The notes: a model not told the origin generated them from the letters alone. A stretch of 45,864 bases of DNA from a virus (IMGVR_UViG_3300037483_000175), one strand, 5' to 3'; numbered from the stretch's first letter, positions 2,017 through 43,942 are shown. Numbers and translations are program-made.

Positions 2017-4284
2017 ATGAAGCAGAAGCCGCTTACAAAATCACAGATACAAAAGCTGTACGCCGCCACGCTGGCCAATGTAAAACGGTTTCCAGGACTC
2101 GCCGGTGCGTTAGCGGAGCAGCTACACGTCTCACAAGAGGCTATACTTGCTACCGAAATCGGCTACTACCCCGCGAAACACGTATGGGTGCTCCCCGAAC
2201 GGGACGAGTACGGCGAGGTAATAGGGCTTACCACCAGAACGATGGACGGCAAGAAGTTTATGGTTCCAGGCTCCAAGCGGGGCCTATTTTACTCGGTCGC
2301 CCCCGAGGTTGGCGATATATACGATAGAAAGCGGTGGACGCGCACGAACGAGGCGCATCCTTGCCCGCTGTGCGGTAAGCCTGATGGCTGCCTCTATCCC
2401 GAGGGCGAGTACGAGAATCCTGCGGCTATTATCTGTCGTGTAATATCAGAAGGTGCTGTTCGGCCTATGAAGTTAGGCCACTTGCATATATTGGACGCGG
2501 AGCGGAATGCTGATCGTACAACTAACATGTCGTCCCTGGCCGTGTCGAATCGTCCGACTCTAATTGTAGAGGGAGGGTCGGATGTTTGCGCCGCGTACGA
2601 TCTTGGGTTTGTTGCAGTAGGGCGCCCGAACGATAAGGCAAAACTTGATTTACTGGCGGCAGTAGTAGCAGGCAAAAAGGTGTGCATTATAGGAGAGAAT
2701 GACGCGGGGGCCGGTGTAGCGGGCATGGAGGCTACCTTTGCAAAGCTGTATACGGCGTGCCCGGAGTGTACTAAACTAATGCCGCCAGCAGGGATTAAAG
2801 ACCTGCGCAAGTGGCTACATGCGGGGCTAACGCCCGACGAGCTACTAAGCCAAATAGAACACGGCGGAAGCTCGACGTTGGACCCTAGCGTATTCCCCAC
2901 TGATATAGCCTTTGATATAGCTAATCAATGGCTACGTGAAAAGTACTACGATGGCGGGACGCTTCTGTTGCGTACGTTCCGCAACGGGTATATAATGTTT
3001 AACGGCCACTGTTACCAGCCTATAGACGACGAACTAATCCACGGGCGGCTATACGAGTTCCTTCACAAAAAACAGTATGCTGACGGAGCAGGTACAATAA
3101 AACGATATAAGCCCACCCGCACTAAGGTGCGAGACATACTGGACGCGTGTAGCGCATACTGCCCTATTGACGCGGACCCGCCAGTATGGCTCACCAAAGA
3201 GGATAGGCCAGACCCCACTAGATTAATTGCGTTTCAAAACGGCATATTAAACGTAGACGAATACGCCGCAGGACACTTGTCGCTGGCCAATCCAGACCCG
3301 GCGTTATTCTCGTTCAACGTGCTACCGTACGCCTTTGACGAAAATGCCGAGTCCCCTATGTGGGAAGACTTCCTCGACGACATATTTAACGGGGACCAGG
3401 ATAAAGTACAGCTTATGGCCCAATGGTTGGGGTACAATTGCGTACCGGATATGTCGTATGAGAAACTTATGATATGGCAAGGACGCCCGCGCTCGGGAAA
3501 AGGTACCTGCTTGGAGGCGATACAGGCTATGCTAGGCAAGCAGAATTGTACGGTGGCCAGCTTCACCCAGCTAGCCACCCAGTTTCCATACGAGACGTTA
3601 GTTGGAAGGCTGTCCGCCGCCATAGCAGAAGCGAAAGCCGTTAGACAGCGCGACTCAGACATGGTTTTGGACAAGTTACTTACCATAGTTGGAGCGGATC
3701 AAGTAGGGGTAAACCGTAAAAATATAACCGCGCTGCCGATAGTGCGGCTGTTTTGCCGGTTTACCCTGGCTATGAATGACTTGCCGCCGTTTACCGATCA
3801 CTCAGGAGCGTTCGAGGCGCGTACCTGCCTGCTCACTTTCGACAATTCGTACATTGGTCGCGAGGATAGAAAACTGAAACACCGCATATATAAGGAGGCC
3901 GCAGAGGGAAGGCTAATAAACTTTGCACTACGGGGGCTCCAGGACTTATACCAGCATACAGATTTCGTTCTGCCGCGCTCTTCGGCGATGGTTATGCGAA
4001 CGTTCCGCGAACTCGTATCTCCAATATCCACCTTCGCTGATCGCTGTTTAAAGGCCAATCACGAAAGCGCTGTGCCTCTTGCCTACCTATACGCGATGTG
4101 GCGGTGGTGGTGCGATAGGGAAGGGCTGCACGTTACGGCGAAGAGTACTTTCGTGCGCAACCTGCTGGCCACTATGCCAGACGCGGTTCACGTGCGCGAG
4201 GGCGAGATAGAGAATCAAGAACAGGTGATGGCCGGGGTCGAGGTATTAGACTGGGCGTCCAAGGAAATGATGAAAGGAGCGTAG
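2017..4284 (+). CDS. Bifunctional DNA primase / SF3 helicase (zinc motif + TOPRIM + D5/P4-type NTPase)
   Basis: CPLCGKPDGC zinc motif; TOPRIM-like LIVEGGSDVCAAYDLGFVAVGRPN ... IIGENDAG; P-loop WQGRPRSGKGTCLE in the C-terminal half. Confidence 0.8.
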   Translation: MKQKPLTKSQIQKLYAATLANVKRFPGLAGALAEQLHVSQEAILATEIGYYPAKHVWVLPERDEYGEVIGLTTRTMDGKKFMVPGSKRGLFYSVAPEVGDIYDRKRWTRTNEAHPCPLCGKPDGCLYPEGEYENPAAIICRVISEGAVRPMKLGHLHILDAERNADRTTNMSSLAVSNRPTLIVEGGSDVCAAYDLGFVAVGRPNDKAKLDLLAAVVAGKKVCIIGENDAGAGVAGMEATFAKLYTACPECTKLMPPAGIKDLRKWLHAGLTPDELLSQIEHGGSSTLDPSVFPTDIAFDIANQWLREKYYDGGTLLLRTFRNGYIMFNGHCYQPIDDELIHGRLYEFLHKKQYADGAGTIKRYKPTRTKVRDILDACSAYCPIDADPPVWLTKEDRPDPTRLIAFQNGILNVDEYAAGHLSLANPDPALFSFNVLPYAFDENAESPMWEDFLDDIFNGDQDKVQLMAQWLGYNCVPDMSYEKLMIWQGRPRSGKGTCLEAIQAMLGKQNCTVASFTQLATQFPYETLVGRLSAAIAEAKAVRQRDSDMVLDKLLTIVGADQVGVNRKNITALPIVRLFCRFTLAMNDLPPFTDHSGAFEARTCLLTFDNSYIGREDRKLKHRIYKEAAEGRLINFALRGLQDLYQHTDFVLPRSSAMVMRTFRELVSPISTFADRCLKANHESAVPLAYLYAMWRWWCDREGLHVTAKSTFVRNLLATMPDAVHVREGEIENQEQVMAGVEVLDWASKEMMKGA

Positions 4285-5523: not shown

Positions 5524-8500
5524 TTAAGGGGCGGATCTGTCTACTTTAGTTTTACGCTTTTTCCTGCTCGGCGTGTACGGAACGTCTTTTCCTTTTTCCA
5601 AGTGTACGCCAAGGCTCGTCATAACCGCGTCAAATCCTGAGAACTCTCCGGACAAAAATCCTATGCCCTGCTGCACCTGTATAGGGGTACTAGATTTTGC
5701 CTCGTACAATAATATAGACGGCATCTGTGTTATTTTTAGCGGGTCGGTATCAGTAGTGTACGACCAGGCTGATAACTTCCTGTCAGTGATAAGTTCCTGC
5801 ATAGAAGTAAACTCTCGTCCGGCCCAATCGGAACCCGTAACAGCATCGGTTAGCATACGAGTAGCTACGCTGCCCTTATATTGCCCAGACTTAATCAAGC
5901 TGCTTACAGGGTCGGGAAAGCCTTGAAGCAGCCCATCCTCTATTTTATTCCTTGCGACAAACTTATACGGGTCCTTAAAGTGTCCGAGGATAGAGAAATA
6001 CCGCCTGCTACTGCTGTCGCCGCCTAGCGCCCGGTATATCGGTGTTATGTCTACGTCGAGCCATCGCAAGTTTCCATTCGCCCAAGCCTTCCTATACCGC
6101 TCTATAAAGTCATCATCGGCGTCACCCAGGCTCAGCAAAAAATTAGCGACAACAGAAGCAAGGACTGTTTTGGCTACGATCCGGCCCCAGAAGGCTCGGT
6201 AAACAGCACCCTCGTCGCCCAACTTGAATGCCTTGACTGCCGACCGTACGTTAGATTCTGTCCAGTCCGGGGCAAGCGCAAGCAAATGGAATACGTGCTG
6301 TACCGTTGGGTTGCGCCCCATGCGATCTAAGTTTAGCCCGCCAAAGTCGTCGTTTATAAGATCGGCGGCCTGTTTGGCTAGTTCGTCCGTCGTTACTTTG
6401 CCGCTCAATATATTGCTCTGGTGTTTGTGCATCAAGTTCTTAAACTCGACCAGGTAGGCTTGGGCCTTCAAGTACGGCCCCATGCGCCCGAATAGCACTT
6501 GCTCGTTCCACTTTCGCAGGTCGGCTATTTTTTGCATCGGCACGCCCGCAGGGCCGGCAGCGTTCGCTATACGCGACCATACAGAACTCGGCGCGTCCAA
6601 GGCTTTGGCGTCGTAGTCCTGGATTTTCCCCAGAGTAAGGCCGTTACGAACTCCCATGCGTAGCTCTGGCGTAAAGTTTAAGTACGCCTGCTTACCCGCT
6701 TTATATGCGGCAACGGGGCTTAATTCGCTCCCTTTAGCATTGGACCCAAGAGTGTAGGACCGGACGAACGCTTGATGATGGAAGAAGCTGGTAAACAGTA
6801 CTGCCTGCTTTATTAAGGCGTTTAACTTGGTAATAGTATCGACGCCGGGCAATCCTTTTATCGCGGACTGGCCCAGTATGTTATTTAAATGCTTACCAAG
6901 CTGGGGCGAGGCATATACGGCCCGCCGTTCCATCACTATCCCGCTATCGGTTACATACGCATTGCGGCTACGCTTGAGGTTATTTATTCCTTCCGCGTCA
7001 CGCACTTTACCGGCCGCCTGCCAGGTAGTAAAGTTTGGGTGATTTACCTGTACCCATCCTTCGTTTTGCTTTGTAGCGAGCAGCCCGTGGCCCATGGCCG
7101 TGCTTAATAGCCCTCGATCCGCTATCGTGTCGTATACCTGCTTACGGCTTATTTGGTGCGCCGAAGTAAGCCCTTTAACTTGTAGCTCTTTTCCCAAACT
7201 CCAGCCATGTAATACGCCCTCTAGCGTACGTTGCCTGGCTCGTTCCGTTTTAGTGCCGAACTTTCTTCCCCTACGCCGGGCTGTTTTTTTAGATGGCTGC
7301 CATATACGGGCTGTGTAGCTTTCTTGCGTATCCTGTAGTACCCCGGCCTGTTCTGCGGCGCGGCCTATTTCTTTGTTCTTCGCCACGATCTCATCGGCTA
7401 CAGCTTTGACCGGCTCCGGAAGGTCTATCGCCCGATCTACAATCGCTTGCTTGTCGGAAGGCAGAGCGTCGTAGTATTTTAATTGGTCCGGGTTATTCTG
7501 AAGATCGACGTACACCTGCATGGCTTCATCGGCTTCTGCAAACGCGGGCTTTCCTACTTTGCCGCCTATCGCTTCCGCTAATTTATTGCGGTATACTTCA
7601 GTTTCGCGATCCGCATCTACCTGCTGCTCTTGTTTATCGGCAAGGTAGCTATCAAGCACTGCGGCGGTATCACGACTAACTGTATCGGGGTCCGCCGGAG
7701 CGGTTTGAGTCGCCGCAGCTACCGTCGCCGCAGCTTCTTGCGGGACCGGGTTAGGCGTGGTTACAATATCGAGAAGCTCTATCTCGTCCGCTGATAGCGA
7801 CTCGTTATTTAATAGTTTCTCATTGATGCGGTTTACGGCTTTTTGGCCTTCTTCCGTAAGCTCAAATTCTTCAGGCGTTATAGCCTGTTTCGTACTATCG
7901 GCTACTTCGCCTTTTGCTACTTTAGCACGAAGGGCCGTATACATGGAGGACGTGGCCTCGGCTGTAGTTCCTGGCGCTGCCGCCAGCCCGCCTAGCGCTC
8001 CCCCGACCAGGGCGTTTTCGGGTACGGCTTTTAGCCCCTCTTTAAGGCCCGCGTTTACAGCTTGCTCTATGGTTCCGCCTGCGGCTATTGTTTTCCCAAA
8101 GGTATTTGTGAACCCTTGGGAGAACCCAGTTACTCCTTCCTGCCCCGCGTTCTCCGCAATAGTGCTTACCAAAGCGCGTAAAGACATGGGAGAGGTAACA
8201 CCTTTAACTAGTTTCGGTAAAACAAGCTGCTCGCCTGCCATTTCCGCTACTTGGGCCAGATCAGCGTACACTGATGCGGCCAGCGGCGTATTGCCCGCCT
8301 TAAGTTGGTCGGCGAATTCCGCGCCGCCGGTAGTCTCTCCCAATAAGGCCACACCCGCCCCCGGCTGTCCCGTCAATAAGCTCACCCCAAGAGCGGCCGC
8401 AAGGCCGGGCACATTCTGCCACACTGCCCGATTTAACTTAGTTACTGGCGCCTCCTTGTAGGTAAGCGGCCGTTGACGAACCGCCTGCTCGGCCTGCTTA

Positions 8501-39960: not shown

Positions 39961-40146
39961 ATGAGATTACTAAGCTGTGATGCGTGTGGAGTAATTCTCG
40001 ACGGAGATAAATTCAAGTTCCCGGAAATATGGGATTGCGACGGCGAATATGTTGAGGGTGCAAGCCAGTGGAGCGGCGAAGCGGGCAGGATGGTTCCTAT
40101 CGCCAAGTGCCCAGTGTGCGGGCACATATTAGAGGATCTAACATGA
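39961..40146 (+). CDS. Zinc-ribbon mini-protein
   Basis: CDACG ... CPVCG. Its stop overlaps the polymerase start (ATGA). Confidence 0.55.
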   Translation: MRLLSCDACGVILDGDKFKFPEIWDCDGEYVEGASQWSGEAGRMVPIAKCPVCGHILEDLT

Positions 40147-42953
40147 TCCCCGAATGTCTCGCCACACTGAAGCGGATAAACTACCCGACACGGGTAGTAT
40201 GTCTGGACTTCGAGAGCTATTTCGATAAGGACTACAGGCTATACGGAAAAGACGGCAAGGGACTTTCTACCATCGAGTATGTAACGGGCGAGCGGTTTGC
40301 GCTTACCGGACTAGGCATAGGCCGTCTGGGCAAGCGGGCGGCGTTCATTCCGCCCGATAGGATACCCGCCACGCTCCAGTGGTGCAAGGCGCACGACCGG
40401 GAGTATACATGGGTCGTGCACAACGGGCGATTTGACGTTACGATCTTGCAGGTTCACTTTGATTGGGTTCCTGCGTATACCCTCGATACACTCGATCTCG
40501 CCTCGCACTATGATTCGCGCATGAGCCACAGCGTAAAAGACCTAGCTGACTACTTCAACCTTCCGATTAAAAAAGGCGACACGCAACAGTTCAAGGGGCT
40601 CCATTGGGGCGAGATGAACGCCGACGCGCGGGCAAAATTCGCGGAATATACGGCAGGCGACGTAGATATAGAACTCGCCTTGTTTGAAATACTGCTGCCT
40701 AAGTTATCAGATCCGGTAACAGAAGCCCGGCTCATGCGGCATAATCTCGATATATGGCTGCACCGTCCGGTCGCCATAAACAAGGAACTAGCAAAGGATC
40801 TCCAGCTAGCCATGCAGGTGAAGATCGATAACGCGATTGAAATGTCCGGGCTTACTGTTAAAGAGCTACGCAGCGCTAAATTTGTTGAGCGGCTGCAAGA
40901 AGTACTCCCGTCTGGAGAAAAACTGCCGCTTAAACCAGGTAAGAAAGGCATGATCCCGGCCCTCGCGAAAACGGATGCCGGCTGTCAGCAACTAGGCGCC
41001 CATCAAAAGAAAGAAGTGCGCGACCTAGTTGAGGCGAGACTTCTAGTTAAGTCATGGCCCACGCATATTAAGCGTATCGAACGTATTATCGCTCAGGCCG
41101 GCGCAAATGGCGGGCTACTGCGCGTACCCACTGGGTACTATTCGTGCCACACCGGTCGCAATGGGGGTAAGGAAAAGATAAATCTGCTCAATCTTGGCGG
41201 CAAGGGTACAGGCGGCATCAAGACCCACCCGCTTATCGCCCAGACGCGGAATATAATTTGCGCCTTACCTGATCACATCCTGGGGATTTGTGACTCGGCG
41301 CAGATTGAAGCGCGCCTACTGGCCTGGCTAGCCGGGTGCGGTACGCTGCTTCAGGGGTTCGCGGCCGGAGCGGATATTTACTCTGATTTCGTCTCGCCTA
41401 TATTCGGTACGCCTATTCGCAAACCGCGAGACACTGATCCTCCTGAGATAGCTAAGGATCTTGATATTAAACGTGGTTTCGGCAAGACGAGCATTCTAGG
41501 CTTTGGGTATGGTATGGGGGCGGACACGCAGTACAACAAGTGCCTGGCTAATCCCGAGTTGCGCCCGTTTTTTGACGCCGGTGTTTACGACAAGGGATTT
41601 GTGCGCGGCCTGGTAAGTGAGTACCGCCGCAGGTACCTAGAGATTCCTGCCCTGTGGAACCTACTCGAAGGTGCGTTTAGGCAATGTATTAGGTTCCAGC
41701 ATCTGGGGCCGGTTACTGTAAACGATAAACTAGTATTTGAAGGTAAGGAATCAGAAGTAACAATCGCGCTACCTAACGGGCGGAGACTGTACTACACAGG
41801 TTGCCGCATCGTTAACAATAAAATTAAGACCGATCACGGGTTCCTATGGGGGGGAAGTCTGTGCCTAGCCGGGTATACTAGGGTTCTAACAAATAACGGG
41901 ATTAAAAGGCTGGATACTATATCGTTGGCCGACCTAGTTTGGGATGGCCTATCGTGGGTGCGCCATTCAGGATTGAAGTATAAAGGGCGGAAGCCTGTGA
42001 TTGGGTTGAACGGCCTGGATATGACCGAGGACCACCAGGTGCTTACAGTGAAAGGATGGACTAATGCGAGTTCGGCATACGGATCTTCTTGGGCGGCGGT
42101 TCGGGAACCTAGTGGTTATAGAGAGCTTAGGGTCGAACGGGAAAAACTGGCAGTGGAAAGTTCGCTGTGCTTGCGGGAGAGAGTACACGCGACTCGGAAA
42201 AGACCTAACGCGAAAGCGCGGAACGAAAGAATGCGCGCAGTGTTCCCGGCGGCACAGCGGGGTGCCTACGCACGGCATGTCGCGTCACCCGGCTTACCAT
42301 GTGTGGCGGAGTATGAGAGACAGGTGCCGGCTATCCTCACACCAAGCGTGGAAAAACTACGGTGGGCGGGGTATAAAGGTGTGCAAGCGTTGGGAAAAGT
42401 TCGAGAACTTTTGGGTCGATATGGGGCCGAGCTACGAACGCGGGCTAACTTTGGATCGAATAAACAACAACGGAAACTATACACCAACAAATTGCCGGTG
42501 GGCAACGCGCAAGGAGCAGGCGCTAAACAAGCGTACCTCGTTGGGTATAGACCTGGCGACGCTAGCCAAAAACACAGGGATCCCTCGATCAACGCTATAC
42601 TACCGACTCGTGGGCGGGAAGCCGTTACTTCCGTCTGGGACCTAACCAACTGTGGCCCTCGCCGTCGCTTTACAGTACTCGATGAAGCAGGCGAATTGCG
42701 GCTTGTGCACAACTGTGAGAATATATGCCAGAGCGTCTGTAGGGATTTACTAGCGTACTGGGTGCTCCGCTGCGAAGACGAGGGCATAAAAGTTATCCTG
42801 ACCGTGTACGACGAAATCGTTACAATGCTTGAAAAGCCGCAAGCGGAAAAGAAATTCGCCCGGCTTCAAGAGATCATGCTCGAAGTTCCCGATTGGGCCG
42901 AAGGGCTGCCGGTCGATGCCGAAGGCCAACTAAGCGAGTTTTATTGTAAATAG
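40143..42953 (+). CDS. polA: Family A DNA polymerase with 3'-5' exonuclease domain, interrupted by a 284-codon intein
   Basis: Exo motifs VCLDFES, HNGRFDV and YTAGDVD. Pol motif A ICDSAQIEARLLAW, motif B KRGFGKTSILGFGYGMG and motif C LTVYDEI. ATG at 40143 behind gaggatctaac (the track start at 40068 overlaps the upstream gene). Confidence 0.85.
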   Translation: MIPECLATLKRINYPTRVVCLDFESYFDKDYRLYGKDGKGLSTIEYVTGERFALTGLGIGRLGKRAAFIPPDRIPATLQWCKAHDREYTWVVHNGRFDVTILQVHFDWVPAYTLDTLDLASHYDSRMSHSVKDLADYFNLPIKKGDTQQFKGLHWGEMNADARAKFAEYTAGDVDIELALFEILLPKLSDPVTEARLMRHNLDIWLHRPVAINKELAKDLQLAMQVKIDNAIEMSGLTVKELRSAKFVERLQEVLPSGEKLPLKPGKKGMIPALAKTDAGCQQLGAHQKKEVRDLVEARLLVKSWPTHIKRIERIIAQAGANGGLLRVPTGYYSCHTGRNGGKEKINLLNLGGKGTGGIKTHPLIAQTRNIICALPDHILGICDSAQIEARLLAWLAGCGTLLQGFAAGADIYSDFVSPIFGTPIRKPRDTDPPEIAKDLDIKRGFGKTSILGFGYGMGADTQYNKCLANPELRPFFDAGVYDKGFVRGLVSEYRRRYLEIPALWNLLEGAFRQCIRFQHLGPVTVNDKLVFEGKESEVTIALPNGRRLYYTGCRIVNNKIKTDHGFLWGGSLCLAGYTRVLTNNGIKRLDTISLADLVWDGLSWVRHSGLKYKGRKPVIGLNGLDMTEDHQVLTVKGWTNASSAYGSSWAAVREPSGYRELRVEREKLAVESSLCLRERVHATRKRPNAKARNERMRAVFPAAQRGAYARHVASPGLPCVAEYERQVPAILTPSVEKLRWAGYKGVQALGKVRELLGRYGAELRTRANFGSNKQQRKLYTNKLPVGNAQGAGAKQAYLVGYRPGDASQKHRDPSINAILPTRGREAVTSVWDLTNCGPRRRFTVLDEAGELRLVHNCENICQSVCRDLLAYWVLRCEDEGIKVILTVYDEIVTMLEKPQAEKKFARLQEIMLEVPDWAEGLPVDAEGQLSEFYCK
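41862..42713 (+). mobile_element. Intein (Hint domain split around an out-of-frame endonuclease gene)
   Basis: N-terminal CLAGYTRVLT (block A) and LDMTEDHQVLTVKGW (block B). C-terminal VWDLTNCGPRRRFTV ... LRLVHN followed by Cys+1. The exteins rejoin to GGSL-CENICQSVCRD, matching the conserved GGKL.EN..Q..ARD segment of family A polymerases. Confidence 0.75.
42064..42645 (+). CDS. Free-standing homing-endonuclease-like gene nested in the intein, read in the +1 frame relative to the polymerase
   Basis: Own SD aaagga 7 nt before the ATG, and own TAA. LLGRRFGNLVVIE, CACG ... CAQC, THGMSRHPAYHVWRSMRDRC, YGGRGIKVCKRWEKFENFWVDMG and LTLDRINNNGNYTPTNCRWATRKEQ. C-terminal HTH LAKNTGIPRSTLYYRL. Confidence 0.7.
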   Translation: MRVRHTDLLGRRFGNLVVIESLGSNGKNWQWKVRCACGREYTRLGKDLTRKRGTKECAQCSRRHSGVPTHGMSRHPAYHVWRSMRDRCRLSSHQAWKNYGGRGIKVCKRWEKFENFWVDMGPSYERGLTLDRINNNGNYTPTNCRWATRKEQALNKRTSLGIDLATLAKNTGIPRSTLYYRLVGGKPLLPSGT

Positions 42954-42962
42954 GGGCGAATT

Positions 42963-43484
42963 ATGCACGTAATGGTAGACTTAGAGACAATGGGTACTCG
43001 GTACAACGCGGCAATAATCGCTATCGGCGCAGTGTCGTTCGACATGGGCAGCGCTCGCGACGAGTTTTGCCGCACGGTTAGCCTAGCAAGTTCTTGTGAG
43101 GCGGGGCTATCTGTCGACGCGGGAACAATCATGTGGTGGATGCAGCAGAGTGAGGCGGCGAGATCGGCTATATGTAGGGGCGGCGTTGATTTGCGCACCG
43201 CGCTGCTCGATTTTAGTGGCTGGGCGAATGGGCAAAGACTAACTAGTATATGGGGGGACGGGGCGACGTTCGATAACGTGATACTAACCTCCGCGTACGC
43301 GGCTACCAGATTGCCCCGCCCTTGGTCGTATAGGCAGGATAGGTGCTACCGCACTTTACGGGCTATATATCCGGATGTGCCGCGCCCGCACAATCCCAGC
43401 GCCCATAATGCGCTGGCGGATGCGAGGTCGCAGGCGGAGCATTTGCTCGATATTTGCCGCGTACACGCCATAGAGCTTCTATGA
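42963..43484 (+). CDS. DEDDh-type 3'-5' exonuclease (DnaQ-like fold)
   Basis: VMVDLETMG, WGDGATFDNVIL and HNALADARSQ motifs. Confidence 0.7.
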   Translation: MHVMVDLETMGTRYNAAIIAIGAVSFDMGSARDEFCRTVSLASSCEAGLSVDAGTIMWWMQQSEAARSAICRGGVDLRTALLDFSGWANGQRLTSIWGDGATFDNVILTSAYAATRLPRPWSYRQDRCYRTLRAIYPDVPRPHNPSAHNALADARSQAEHLLDICRVHAIELL

Positions 43485-43942
43485 AACGACCGAGCTTCCA
43501 GCAACGGGCCGAGGGTATATTCGGCGTGTATAAGGCCGAACAAGCCGGGAAGCAGTTTGAGCCTGGCGCGAAGGACGGCTCAGTACCCACGCACCCTGTT
43601 GTACCGGGCGACGATCTACCAGAAGCAGAGGTACTAAAGCGGTGCCTAAAGTGGCTGCGGGCGAGGCAAATTGTAGCGGATCGCATGAATGTAGGGGCCG
43701 GGCACCTGGAAGGAACCGAGCGATTTCACACGTACGGGATACCGGGAGCCGGGGATATTATGGGGCTGCTGCCAAACGGAAAGCACTTCGAGATCGAATG
43801 TAAGGCGGGTAAAGGCGGCAGGCTTAGTAAAAAACAGCAAGAAAGACGAGAAAAGATATTGACCTCGAATGGCGAATATGTTATCGTGCATTCAACGAAC
43901 GAACTCGAATACTATTGGAAACGAATAACACAGGAGAACTAG
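43481..43942 (+). CDS. VRR-NUC domain nuclease
   Basis: GIPGAGDIMGLLPNGKHFEIECKAGKGGRLSKKQ (PD-(D/E)xK core with trailing Q). ATGA overlap start at 43481. Confidence 0.65.
   Translation: MKRPSFQQRAEGIFGVYKAEQAGKQFEPGAKDGSVPTHPVVPGDDLPEAEVLKRCLKWLRARQIVADRMNVGAGHLEGTERFHTYGIPGAGDIMGLLPNGKHFEIECKAGKGGRLSKKQQERREKILTSNGEYVIVHSTNELEYYWKRITQEN

Follow-up and report, generated by a model that had tools for sequence, protein, structure and literature searches.

How can one stretch of DNA serve both as the interior of an intein and as a gene of its own in another reading frame? The question is raised by the viral sequence IMGVR_UViG_3300037483_000175, here called the window (the whole stretch of 45,864 nucleotides that was analyzed), in which a family A DNA polymerase gene carries a 284-codon insert at positions 41862-42713 of the plus strand. 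A first-pass annotation had described this insert as an intein whose endonuclease slot holds a separate homing-endonuclease gene read in the +1 frame, and its individual statements about the sequence (the insert itself, Cys1, the TxxH block, the terminal LRLVHN, Cys+1, the AAAGGA Shine-Dalgarno (SD) site, the ATG, the TAA and a product of 193 amino acids) are all correct. We consider it very probable that the locus is a composite selfish element, made of a mini-intein of class 1 that occupies a conserved motif of the polymerase and of a homing-endonuclease-like gene of the free-standing type that occupies the endonuclease slot in the +1 frame.

The polymerase gene and its intein

The polymerase open reading frame (ORF) is continuous from 40068 to 42953 on the plus strand (961 codons, open from a GTG at 40068) and matches the Pfam families DNA_pol_A (PF00476) and DNA_pol_A_exo1 (PF01612) as well as PHROG 17 (E = 2e-56). 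Translation probably starts at the ATG at 40143, judging from the homologs, which begin at the residue aligned with M26. By its Pfam and PHROG 17 matches, the N-extein (40143-41861) comprises a 3'-5' exonuclease domain followed by the family A motifs A and B, and the C-extein (42714-42953), recognized by alignment with intein-free homologs, opens with Cys+1 (42714-42716) and continues through ENICQSVCRD and motif C (LTVYDEIV) to the stop codon. The insert between them corresponds to polymerase residues 599-882 and separates ...WGGSL from (T->C)ENICQS, upstream of motif C. It is missing from most of the 120 best-scoring polymerase homologs, namely from the two closest, P0002 (78% identical) and P0003 (75%), and from more than 100 others, these homologs being ~650 amino acids long; P0004 and P0027 do carry it at this position. 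Across this point the intein-free homologs read ...LWGGSL/TENxxQSxxRDLL (here and below, the slash marks the site of insertion), as does the intein-free allele on contig L034 (CTATGGGGCGGGAGCCTG/ACGGAGAATGTTATCCAG), and this alignment bears out the insertion point that had been proposed, in the GGxL-EN..Q..ARD segment.

Cys+1 of the window stands where intein-free alleles have threonine. The start of the C-extein (window 42714-42731) reads C-E-N-I in common among intein-bearing alleles and T-E-N-V in close intein-free relatives (comparison with L001, L002, L034 and L035), and the shared isoleucine at +4, which goes further than the obligatory replacement of Thr by Cys, may reflect either a short tract of co-conversion or a need of the splicing reaction. 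A sliding comparison of nucleotide identity with intein-free relatives gave no clear co-conversion tract, its sole hint being the isoleucine at +4 in place of valine. A megablast search of GenBank phages with the polymerase gene returned zero matches, and cultured relatives were found only at the protein level.

Within the insert, the N-terminal Hint lobe (intein residues 1-85, plus strand 41862-42116) begins with Cys1 in CLAGYTRVLT and contains the block B TxxH motif as T55-E-D-H58 (42024-42035). The C-terminal Hint lobe (residues 243-284, plus strand 42588-42713) contains blocks F and G and ends in VWDLTNCGPRRRFTV...LRLVHN, the final His283-Asn284 (42708-42713) being followed by Cys+1. Residues C1, T55, H58, D260, H283 and N284 are invariant across 15 related inteins, the window carries all class-1 catalytic residues, and the invariant positions of the C-terminal lobe are V258, D260, G265, F270, H283 and N284. 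In an AlphaFold (AF2) model of the polymerase-frame insert, built with 15 aligned relatives, residues 1-85 and 243-284 are confident, with pLDDT (predicted local distance difference test) values of 73-92 for residues 1-80 and 67-89 for the C-terminal lobe. The polymerase-frame linker between them (residues 86-242, plus strand 42117-42587), a read-through of the nested gene described below, has pLDDT values below 50 and is predicted to be disordered over its ~157 residues. When the intein model was searched against PDB with Foldseek, the 28 best matches were all inteins (probability 1.00, E from 6e-4), with gp41-1 the best and MchDnaB, Ssp DnaB, DnaX, Mtu RecA and Npu DnaE among the others. The concern that the flanks might show no Hint homology is thus answered by both the AF2 model and the Foldseek matches. 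By its sequence and modeled fold, the 284-codon insert is a contiguous class-1 intein, as first proposed, and the intact catalytic residues together with the selection for an open frame suggest that it splices.

Two other readings of the insert were examined and rejected. A group I intron does not fit an open host frame with Hint blocks flanking the insert, and no Rfam match was obtained at E <= 1 in 41000-43500. A split intein or fractured gene does not fit a polymerase ORF that is continuous over 40068-42953, with no stop codons in the host frame.

Two open frames, their conservation and recurrence

Between the Hint lobes, and reaching into both, lies a second ORF in the +1 frame (plus strand 42064-42645), which encodes 193 amino acids and is identified as a homing-endonuclease-like gene by PHROG 374, an AF2 model and its family alignment. 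It overlaps intein residues 68-85 in the N-terminal lobe and 243-261 in the C-terminal lobe, and its TAA (42643-45) falls within the block F codons. Its ATG is preceded, at a distance of 7 nt, by an SD-like AAAGGA (plus strand 42051-42056), which falls in the intein's K-G-W codons and has counterparts in the same place in the related contigs L001 (AGGAGGA) and L002 (CGAGGT). The site is unpaired in the predicted RNA fold, and the fold around the nested start is unremarkable (z = 0.74).

Chance is a poor explanation for the openness of the polymerase frame across this overlap. When the nested protein was back-translated 200,000 times with the codon usage of the window, the random synonymous sequences had a mean of 8.5 stops in the polymerase frame, where the real sequence has none (P = 4.5e-5 for zero stops); the third frame has 11 stops across the same overlap. 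A stop in the polymerase frame needs a nested codon ending in T before a codon that starts with AA, AG or GA, and T-ending codons occupy 0 of the 45 positions before such codons, compared with 29 of 147 elsewhere. Exclusion of stops from the polymerase frame is reachable through synonymous choices in the nested frame. For comparison, a crude set of the window's remaining ORFs shows at most 122 consecutive open codons in the corresponding relative frame.

Comparison of the window with L001 and L002, which carry P0004 and P0027, indicates what selection acts on in each frame. In the Hint lobes, the third codon position of the polymerase frame is the least conserved (17-40% identity, against 57-78% for the first and second); across the overlap, the least conserved position is the polymerase first position, which is the nested third position. 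In larger samples, the identity at nested codon positions 1, 2 and 3 is 0.55, 0.60 and 0.38 for nine loci with the gene in the +1 frame and 0.58, 0.65 and 0.36 for eight loci with it in the +2 frame. Nested-frame identity among relatives is 49-63% without gaps and, when aligned, 67% between the window and L001 and 63% between the window and L002, compared with 29-37% for the polymerase-frame linker, and the three closest inteins differ by indels of whole codons. Variation in the nested frame is greatest at third codon positions, which marks this frame as under protein-level purifying selection, and the polymerase frame is selected only for the exclusion of stops plus the Hint segments at both ends of the overlap. 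The linker does have apparent homologs in the polymerase frame, which had been named as a possible objection, and these merely reflect that the nested frame is conserved. A comparison of codon usage, also suggested at first pass, was informative in part: the log-likelihoods mark the third frame as clearly non-coding and leave the nested and polymerase frames unseparated (0.07 vs 0.05 bits per codon).

The same layout is found in distant relatives. P0004 (L001, polymerase 46% identical) and P0027 (L002 and L003, two independent assemblies, polymerase 40% identical) share the insertion site and the intein length of 284 codons, and the nested ORF is intact in L001 and L002 (193 and 204 amino acids), starting at intein codon 68 in the +1 frame, at 53-63% nucleotide identity in the nested region. 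A retrieval confined to peptide motifs from the N-terminal Hint lobe, and hence neutral as to the frame of the gene downstream, yielded 33 loci (25 from IMG/VR and 8 from species-representative genomes, all contigs of metagenome-assembled genomes (MAGs)). A homolog of the nested gene lies in the +1 frame in 15 of the 33 and in the +2 frame in 10, and none of these 25 nested loci has it in frame. The remaining 8 have no homolog and consist of a mini-intein (L021), four split inteins, a locus that ends before the relevant region (L023) and two others. The host ORF is open across the nested gene in all nested cases except L043. Over metagenomes, MAGs and cultured phages together, both frames are open in ~30 distinct loci, including L001, L002, L005-L010 and L012 as well as the cultured phages APSE-1, GB2A and SFCi1. 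The proposal that both frames are maintained is well borne out by these loci, by the low probability of zero stops and by the codon-position pattern.

The arrangement also extends to other sites and other host genes. At a second intein site, in polymerase motif B (GFGKDAILG/C), the same gene family occurs in the +2 frame in P0040 (L032, 2452-3126) and P0093 (L033, 2545-3111), and a conserved 'linker' motif in the polymerase frame there (GLSPSNVVAPVVESLLRQE...NLHAVMSVLKK) is a read-through of the nested gene. An exhaustive profile search with the polymerase-frame insert matched 2,748 representatives of clusters defined at 50% identity at E <= 1e-3, and 397 at E <= 1e-30; among the best 150 of the 2,748, most match from Cys1 to Asn284, and in many proteins of this search the number of matching stretches is two to four. 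(When the 284-amino-acid insert was the query of a word-index protein search, no protein was matched, the identical P0001 included, a limit of that tool which the exhaustive profile search does not share.) The host proteins sampled are family A polymerases, with inteins at adjacent sites (...L/CEN, ...EN/C[VTI]Q and ...GK/CxE), and SNF2 helicases, and in P0372 and P0379 the same intein, with the read-through signature, lies between the SNF2 and Helicase_C domains. Its occurrence in SNF2-family helicases means that the element has moved between host genes.

On a limited DNA sample of ~30 distinct loci together with the polymerase-frame protein matches, the out-of-frame arrangement looks like a stable and widespread state rather than a passing intermediate. 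The first interpretation, otherwise correct in its structural and genetic reading, had taken it for a step between a classical intein with a fused endonuclease and a split intein. Its scale and regularity may have been under-appreciated, considering the hundreds of divergent clusters, the several host sites and genes and the use of both alternative frames. That only out-of-frame and split forms are seen would be explained by the fact that an in-frame gene with its own stop codon would split the intein. We advance only tentatively, and with more doubt than belief, the bolder proposition that an out-of-frame position is the sole way in which this endonuclease-like family lives in inteins, and that this design is stable and highly successful and no transitional accident. 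If that were true, a large class of mobile inteins would have been overlooked, domain searches seeing in them a 'mini-intein with long featureless linker', and the overlap might be adaptive, tying translation of the endonuclease to the polymerase mRNA and exacting a price from the host gene when the endonuclease gene is lost.

The dual-coding region also contains long antisense ORFs (103-173 amino acids), at 41967-42278 and 42266-42787 on the minus strand of the window and, again on the minus strand, at 2382-2885 in L001 and at 6826-7176 and 7272-7622 in L002. These are probably a by-product of the constrained two-frame composition.

The nested protein, a model of its action and rival explanations

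The nested protein matches PHROG 374 ('HNH endonuclease', E = 2e-53), with PHROG 3377, 2081 and 953 likewise annotated as HNH endonuclease, and has more than 7,000 free-standing relatives of ~210 amino acids each, a number at which the search was saturated. Its AF2 model, built with 54 sequences, has a mean pLDDT of 89 and shows a beta-rich Zn-ribbon (residues ~11-63), a helical part with an HNH-like beta-beta-alpha core (~70-157; strands 129-132 and 144-147, helix 149-154) and a C-terminal helix-turn-helix (HTH, ~160-185). Every invariant column of the 54-sequence family alignment is kept in the window. Its structural neighbours in BFVD are, by name, many phage HNH/HTH homing endonucleases and AP2-domain proteins. 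Among solved structures, only I-HmuI (PDB 1u3e) gives a profile match (E = 0.008), which covers the beta-beta-alpha-metal motif. The structural asparagine of this motif is conserved as the invariant N143, and Gln152 and Asn155 stand at the positions of I-HmuI Asn96 and Asn99.

Several results weigh against parts of our interpretation. Searches of Pfam and NCBIfam did not recognize the intein, nor did NCBIfam recognize the nested protein, whose family has no Pfam model. A Foldseek search of PDB with the whole nested-protein model returned nothing significant, the best nuclease match being PacI (E = 0.32). Arg132, invariant in the 54 family members, aligns with His75 of I-HmuI, the catalytic general base, and D131 next to it is not conserved in the family; I-HmuI differs further in having the metal-binding Asn96 where the nested protein has Gln152, and in its domain organization. 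A promoter and terminator scan gave matches at chance level only, with no dedicated promoter or RNA structure for the nested gene. In addition, the evidence for mobility presented below is a patchy distribution in a small sample and not a phylogenetic test. The label of homing endonuclease given at first pass is a putative one, backed by the PHROG annotation and at odds with the invariant arginine that the family has in place of the canonical catalytic histidine. We regard the nested protein as HNH-like and as one that may not be a conventional HNH nuclease, nuclease activity being suggested by the PHROG annotation.

Under the composite-element reading, ribosomes on the polymerase mRNA would read through the nested gene and produce the ~157-residue disordered linker between the Hint lobes; these would then associate into one fold and excise the intein by splicing, so that an active polymerase is regained. 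Other ribosomes would initiate at the internal SD site and the ATG at 42064 and make a protein of ~22 kDa with Zn ribbon, HNH-like core and HTH. Such internal initiation on the polymerase mRNA is the simplest model of expression. The ~22 kDa protein would presumably cut intein-free polymerase alleles in co-infecting phages, and repair would copy the whole element into them.

Other explanations would keep the anatomy and change its meaning. If two compensating indels introduced by sequencing or assembly had displaced the ordinary in-frame endonuclease domain of a canonical intein, the layout would be an artefact of this one contig, yet the two frames, the nested ATG at intein codon 68 and the length of 284 codons recur in independent assemblies at 53-63% nucleotide identity, and the ~30 distinct loci include finished genomes of cultured phages and 0 loci with the gene in frame; the artefact can be given next to no weight. 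Hardly any more credible is programmed frameshifting (+1 on entry and -1 on exit), which would turn the same DNA into a canonical bifunctional intein. The nested ORFs have their own start codon with an SD-like site and their own stop codon, the gene lies in the +1 or the +2 frame depending on the lineage and would need different shifts, and the entry point has no notable RNA structure. It is also conceivable that the nested ORF is a silent, untranslated relic of a recent insertion and that only the polymerase/intein frame functions, in line with the C-terminally truncated copy in L005 and with several other relatives that give only partial profile matches. The copy in the window, however, keeps all family-invariant residues, the start codon and the SD-like site, and the region has the wobble pattern of a coding gene, with 63-67% identity of the nested protein at 53-63% nucleotide identity against 29-37% for the linker, all of which makes a relic very improbable.

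A small but appreciable probability attaches to a different possibility, that the nested protein binds DNA without nuclease activity, as a regulator, a maturase-like factor or a relic relying on another nuclease, and that the element persists by other means. This would account for R132 being invariant in 54 members at the position of I-HmuI His75 with D131 unconserved, and for a protein without a significant fold match in PDB whose HTH and Zn-ribbon are DNA-binding modules. The genomic behaviour of the family is nevertheless that typical of homing endonuclease genes, located at conserved motifs of essential genes (adjacent polymerase sites and SNF2 helicases) and with a free-standing copy beside an intein-free polymerase gene, and the PHROG families annotate it as HNH endonuclease. 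The beta-beta-alpha core, Asn143 and the invariant H70, H93, C88 and C144 are also retained, so that an active site is possible.

Mobility, related states and known systems

The element is better conserved than its host gene: between the window and the relatives with the same-site intein, the nested proteins are 63-67% and the Hint lobes 52-61% identical, compared with 40-46% for the polymerases. Its distribution is patchy as well, the element being missing from polymerases that are 78% and 75% identical to that of the window and present in ones that are 46% and 40% identical. Relatives of the locus exist in several other states. The closest free-standing homolog of the nested protein (P0121, 64% identical) is encoded on contig L004 directly after an intein-free family A polymerase gene, whose last codons it overlaps (119-784 for the polymerase, 724/763-1347 for the homolog), and this arrangement, in which the endonuclease gene stands free beside its target gene, may represent a precursor state. 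At the motif B site of a polymerase, contig L021 has a mini-intein of this Hint type (~135 amino acids, 659-~1060) that lacks a nested gene, and the contig carries a free-standing endonuclease-like homolog elsewhere (3095-3718). In L029 (2056-5217), the N-terminal lobe ends in a stop and is followed by a 305-amino-acid gene with a GIY-YIG-like N-terminal motif and then by a C-terminal intein piece (YDIVNAGPRNRFMANGRIVSN/S) that resumes the family A polymerase, which is the fractured-gene or split form; in L026, L030 and L031, too, a related N-terminal lobe ends in a stop. L029 is the one of the four split inteins of the sample in which the content of the gap was read.

The states seen in L004, the mini-intein and the split relatives fit an origin in which a free-standing endonuclease gene invades a mini-intein, as put forward by Dassa et al. 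2009 (PMC2677866) and Gosselin et al. 2025 (bioRxiv 10.1101/2025.01.02.630785). The locus supports the view that the splicing element came first and that the endonuclease gene invaded it later, and indicates that an endonuclease gene of the free-standing type can join an intein without turning into a domain fused to it.

The first-pass annotation had known of no description of such an overlap, and in this it was mistaken, given that out-of-frame endonucleases in inteins are reported in 2025-2026 preprints and that the overlapping genes P45 and P46 of phage APSE-1 are annotated in RefSeq. Gosselin, Arsenault and Gogarten (bioRxiv 10.1101/2025.01.02.630785) describe inteins of actinobacteriophages whose endonuclease is read in a different frame (endonuclease VII-like, in frame 3) or from the complementary strand, and which they term rare, and Phillips et al. 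(bioRxiv 10.64898/2026.09.14.751524), citing Gorbalenya 1998, describe a cyanobacterial DnaX intein with an out-of-frame LAGLIDADG gene in a +2 ORF. These inteins share with ours a disordered in-frame region between the lobes, a confident endonuclease-like model of the overlapping ORF with an SD motif before it, purifying selection on the overlapping frame, a patchy distribution and a proposed origin by invasion of a mini-intein. They differ in the endonuclease family, which here is HNH-like with Zn ribbon and HTH and lies outside Pfam, and in the host gene, which here is the family A polymerase of an uncultured phage. The architecture is rare according to those papers, whereas the family described here comprises hundreds of 50%-identity clusters.

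Two further kinds of system come close. Fractured genes (Dassa et al. 2009, PMC2677866) likewise place at the endonuclease insertion point of the intein an endonuclease gene that has start and stop codons of its own; they include gp41-1, the best structural match here, and the relative L029 has that split form. By contrast, stop codons are missing from the host frame in the window, and its contiguous intein is predicted to splice in cis. The phage methylase of ShiLan (Arsenault et al. 2025, PMC11855218) hides an out-of-frame HNH gene that overlaps the host gene and leaves the host frame free of stops, as in our case. It has no intein and no detectable splicing domains, so that the insert stays in the host protein, whereas complete Hint lobes flank the nested gene here.

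Among cultured phages, tblastn of the insert against GenBank phages listed 25 records. APSE-1 (NC_000935, L044) has the same arrangement in its family A polymerase P45, with the same Hint type, the same nested gene family (P46) in the +1 frame and the same insertion site (GGKS/CENICQ, against GGSL/CENICQ in the window); the tblastn match covers 100% of the insert, and in the +1 frame the profile of the nested gene, matched over its whole length, reaches 300 bits. APSE-1 and its kin differ from the window in a polymerase-frame insert identity of ~34-35% and in inteins of 306 amino acids compared with 284. RefSeq places the P46 'HNH endonuclease' coding sequence wholly inside that of the P45 DNA polymerase and annotates P46 from a late ATG (141 amino acids), the homologous open frame reaching ~80 codons further upstream without an ATG. 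In the literature searched, the APSE intein is mentioned only in passing, for its differential loss from the polymerase among APSE phages (Rouil et al. 2020, PMC7313666), and the overlap is not discussed. The Caulobacter phages GB2A, RW, RLK and KcrB have the same arrangement with the nested gene unannotated, GB2A at the same site (SGKL/CENVVQ), as does Shewanella phage SFCi1 at the neighbouring EN/CTQ site. In the Dhillonviruses it is the +2 variant that occupies the motif B site; of their records, that of phage Pubbukkers names an 'intein-containing DNA polymerase', and that of Sodalis phage SO-1 (L045, NC_013600, gp38/gp39) describes the insert as a 'type I self-splicing intron'. Such loci are mis-annotated by gene callers and domain databases in different ways, with the nested gene missed, the polymerase split into separate genes or, as in SO-1, a group I intron named. 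The cultivable relatives, known for long, provide test systems for overlapping translation, splicing and homing, GB2A with its host CB15 seeming especially suitable and the APSE phages also being candidates. Finally, 143 Salmonella phage records partially match the insert in the tblastn search, none of them among the 25 records listed, and these may be related inteins with a different nested gene or with none.

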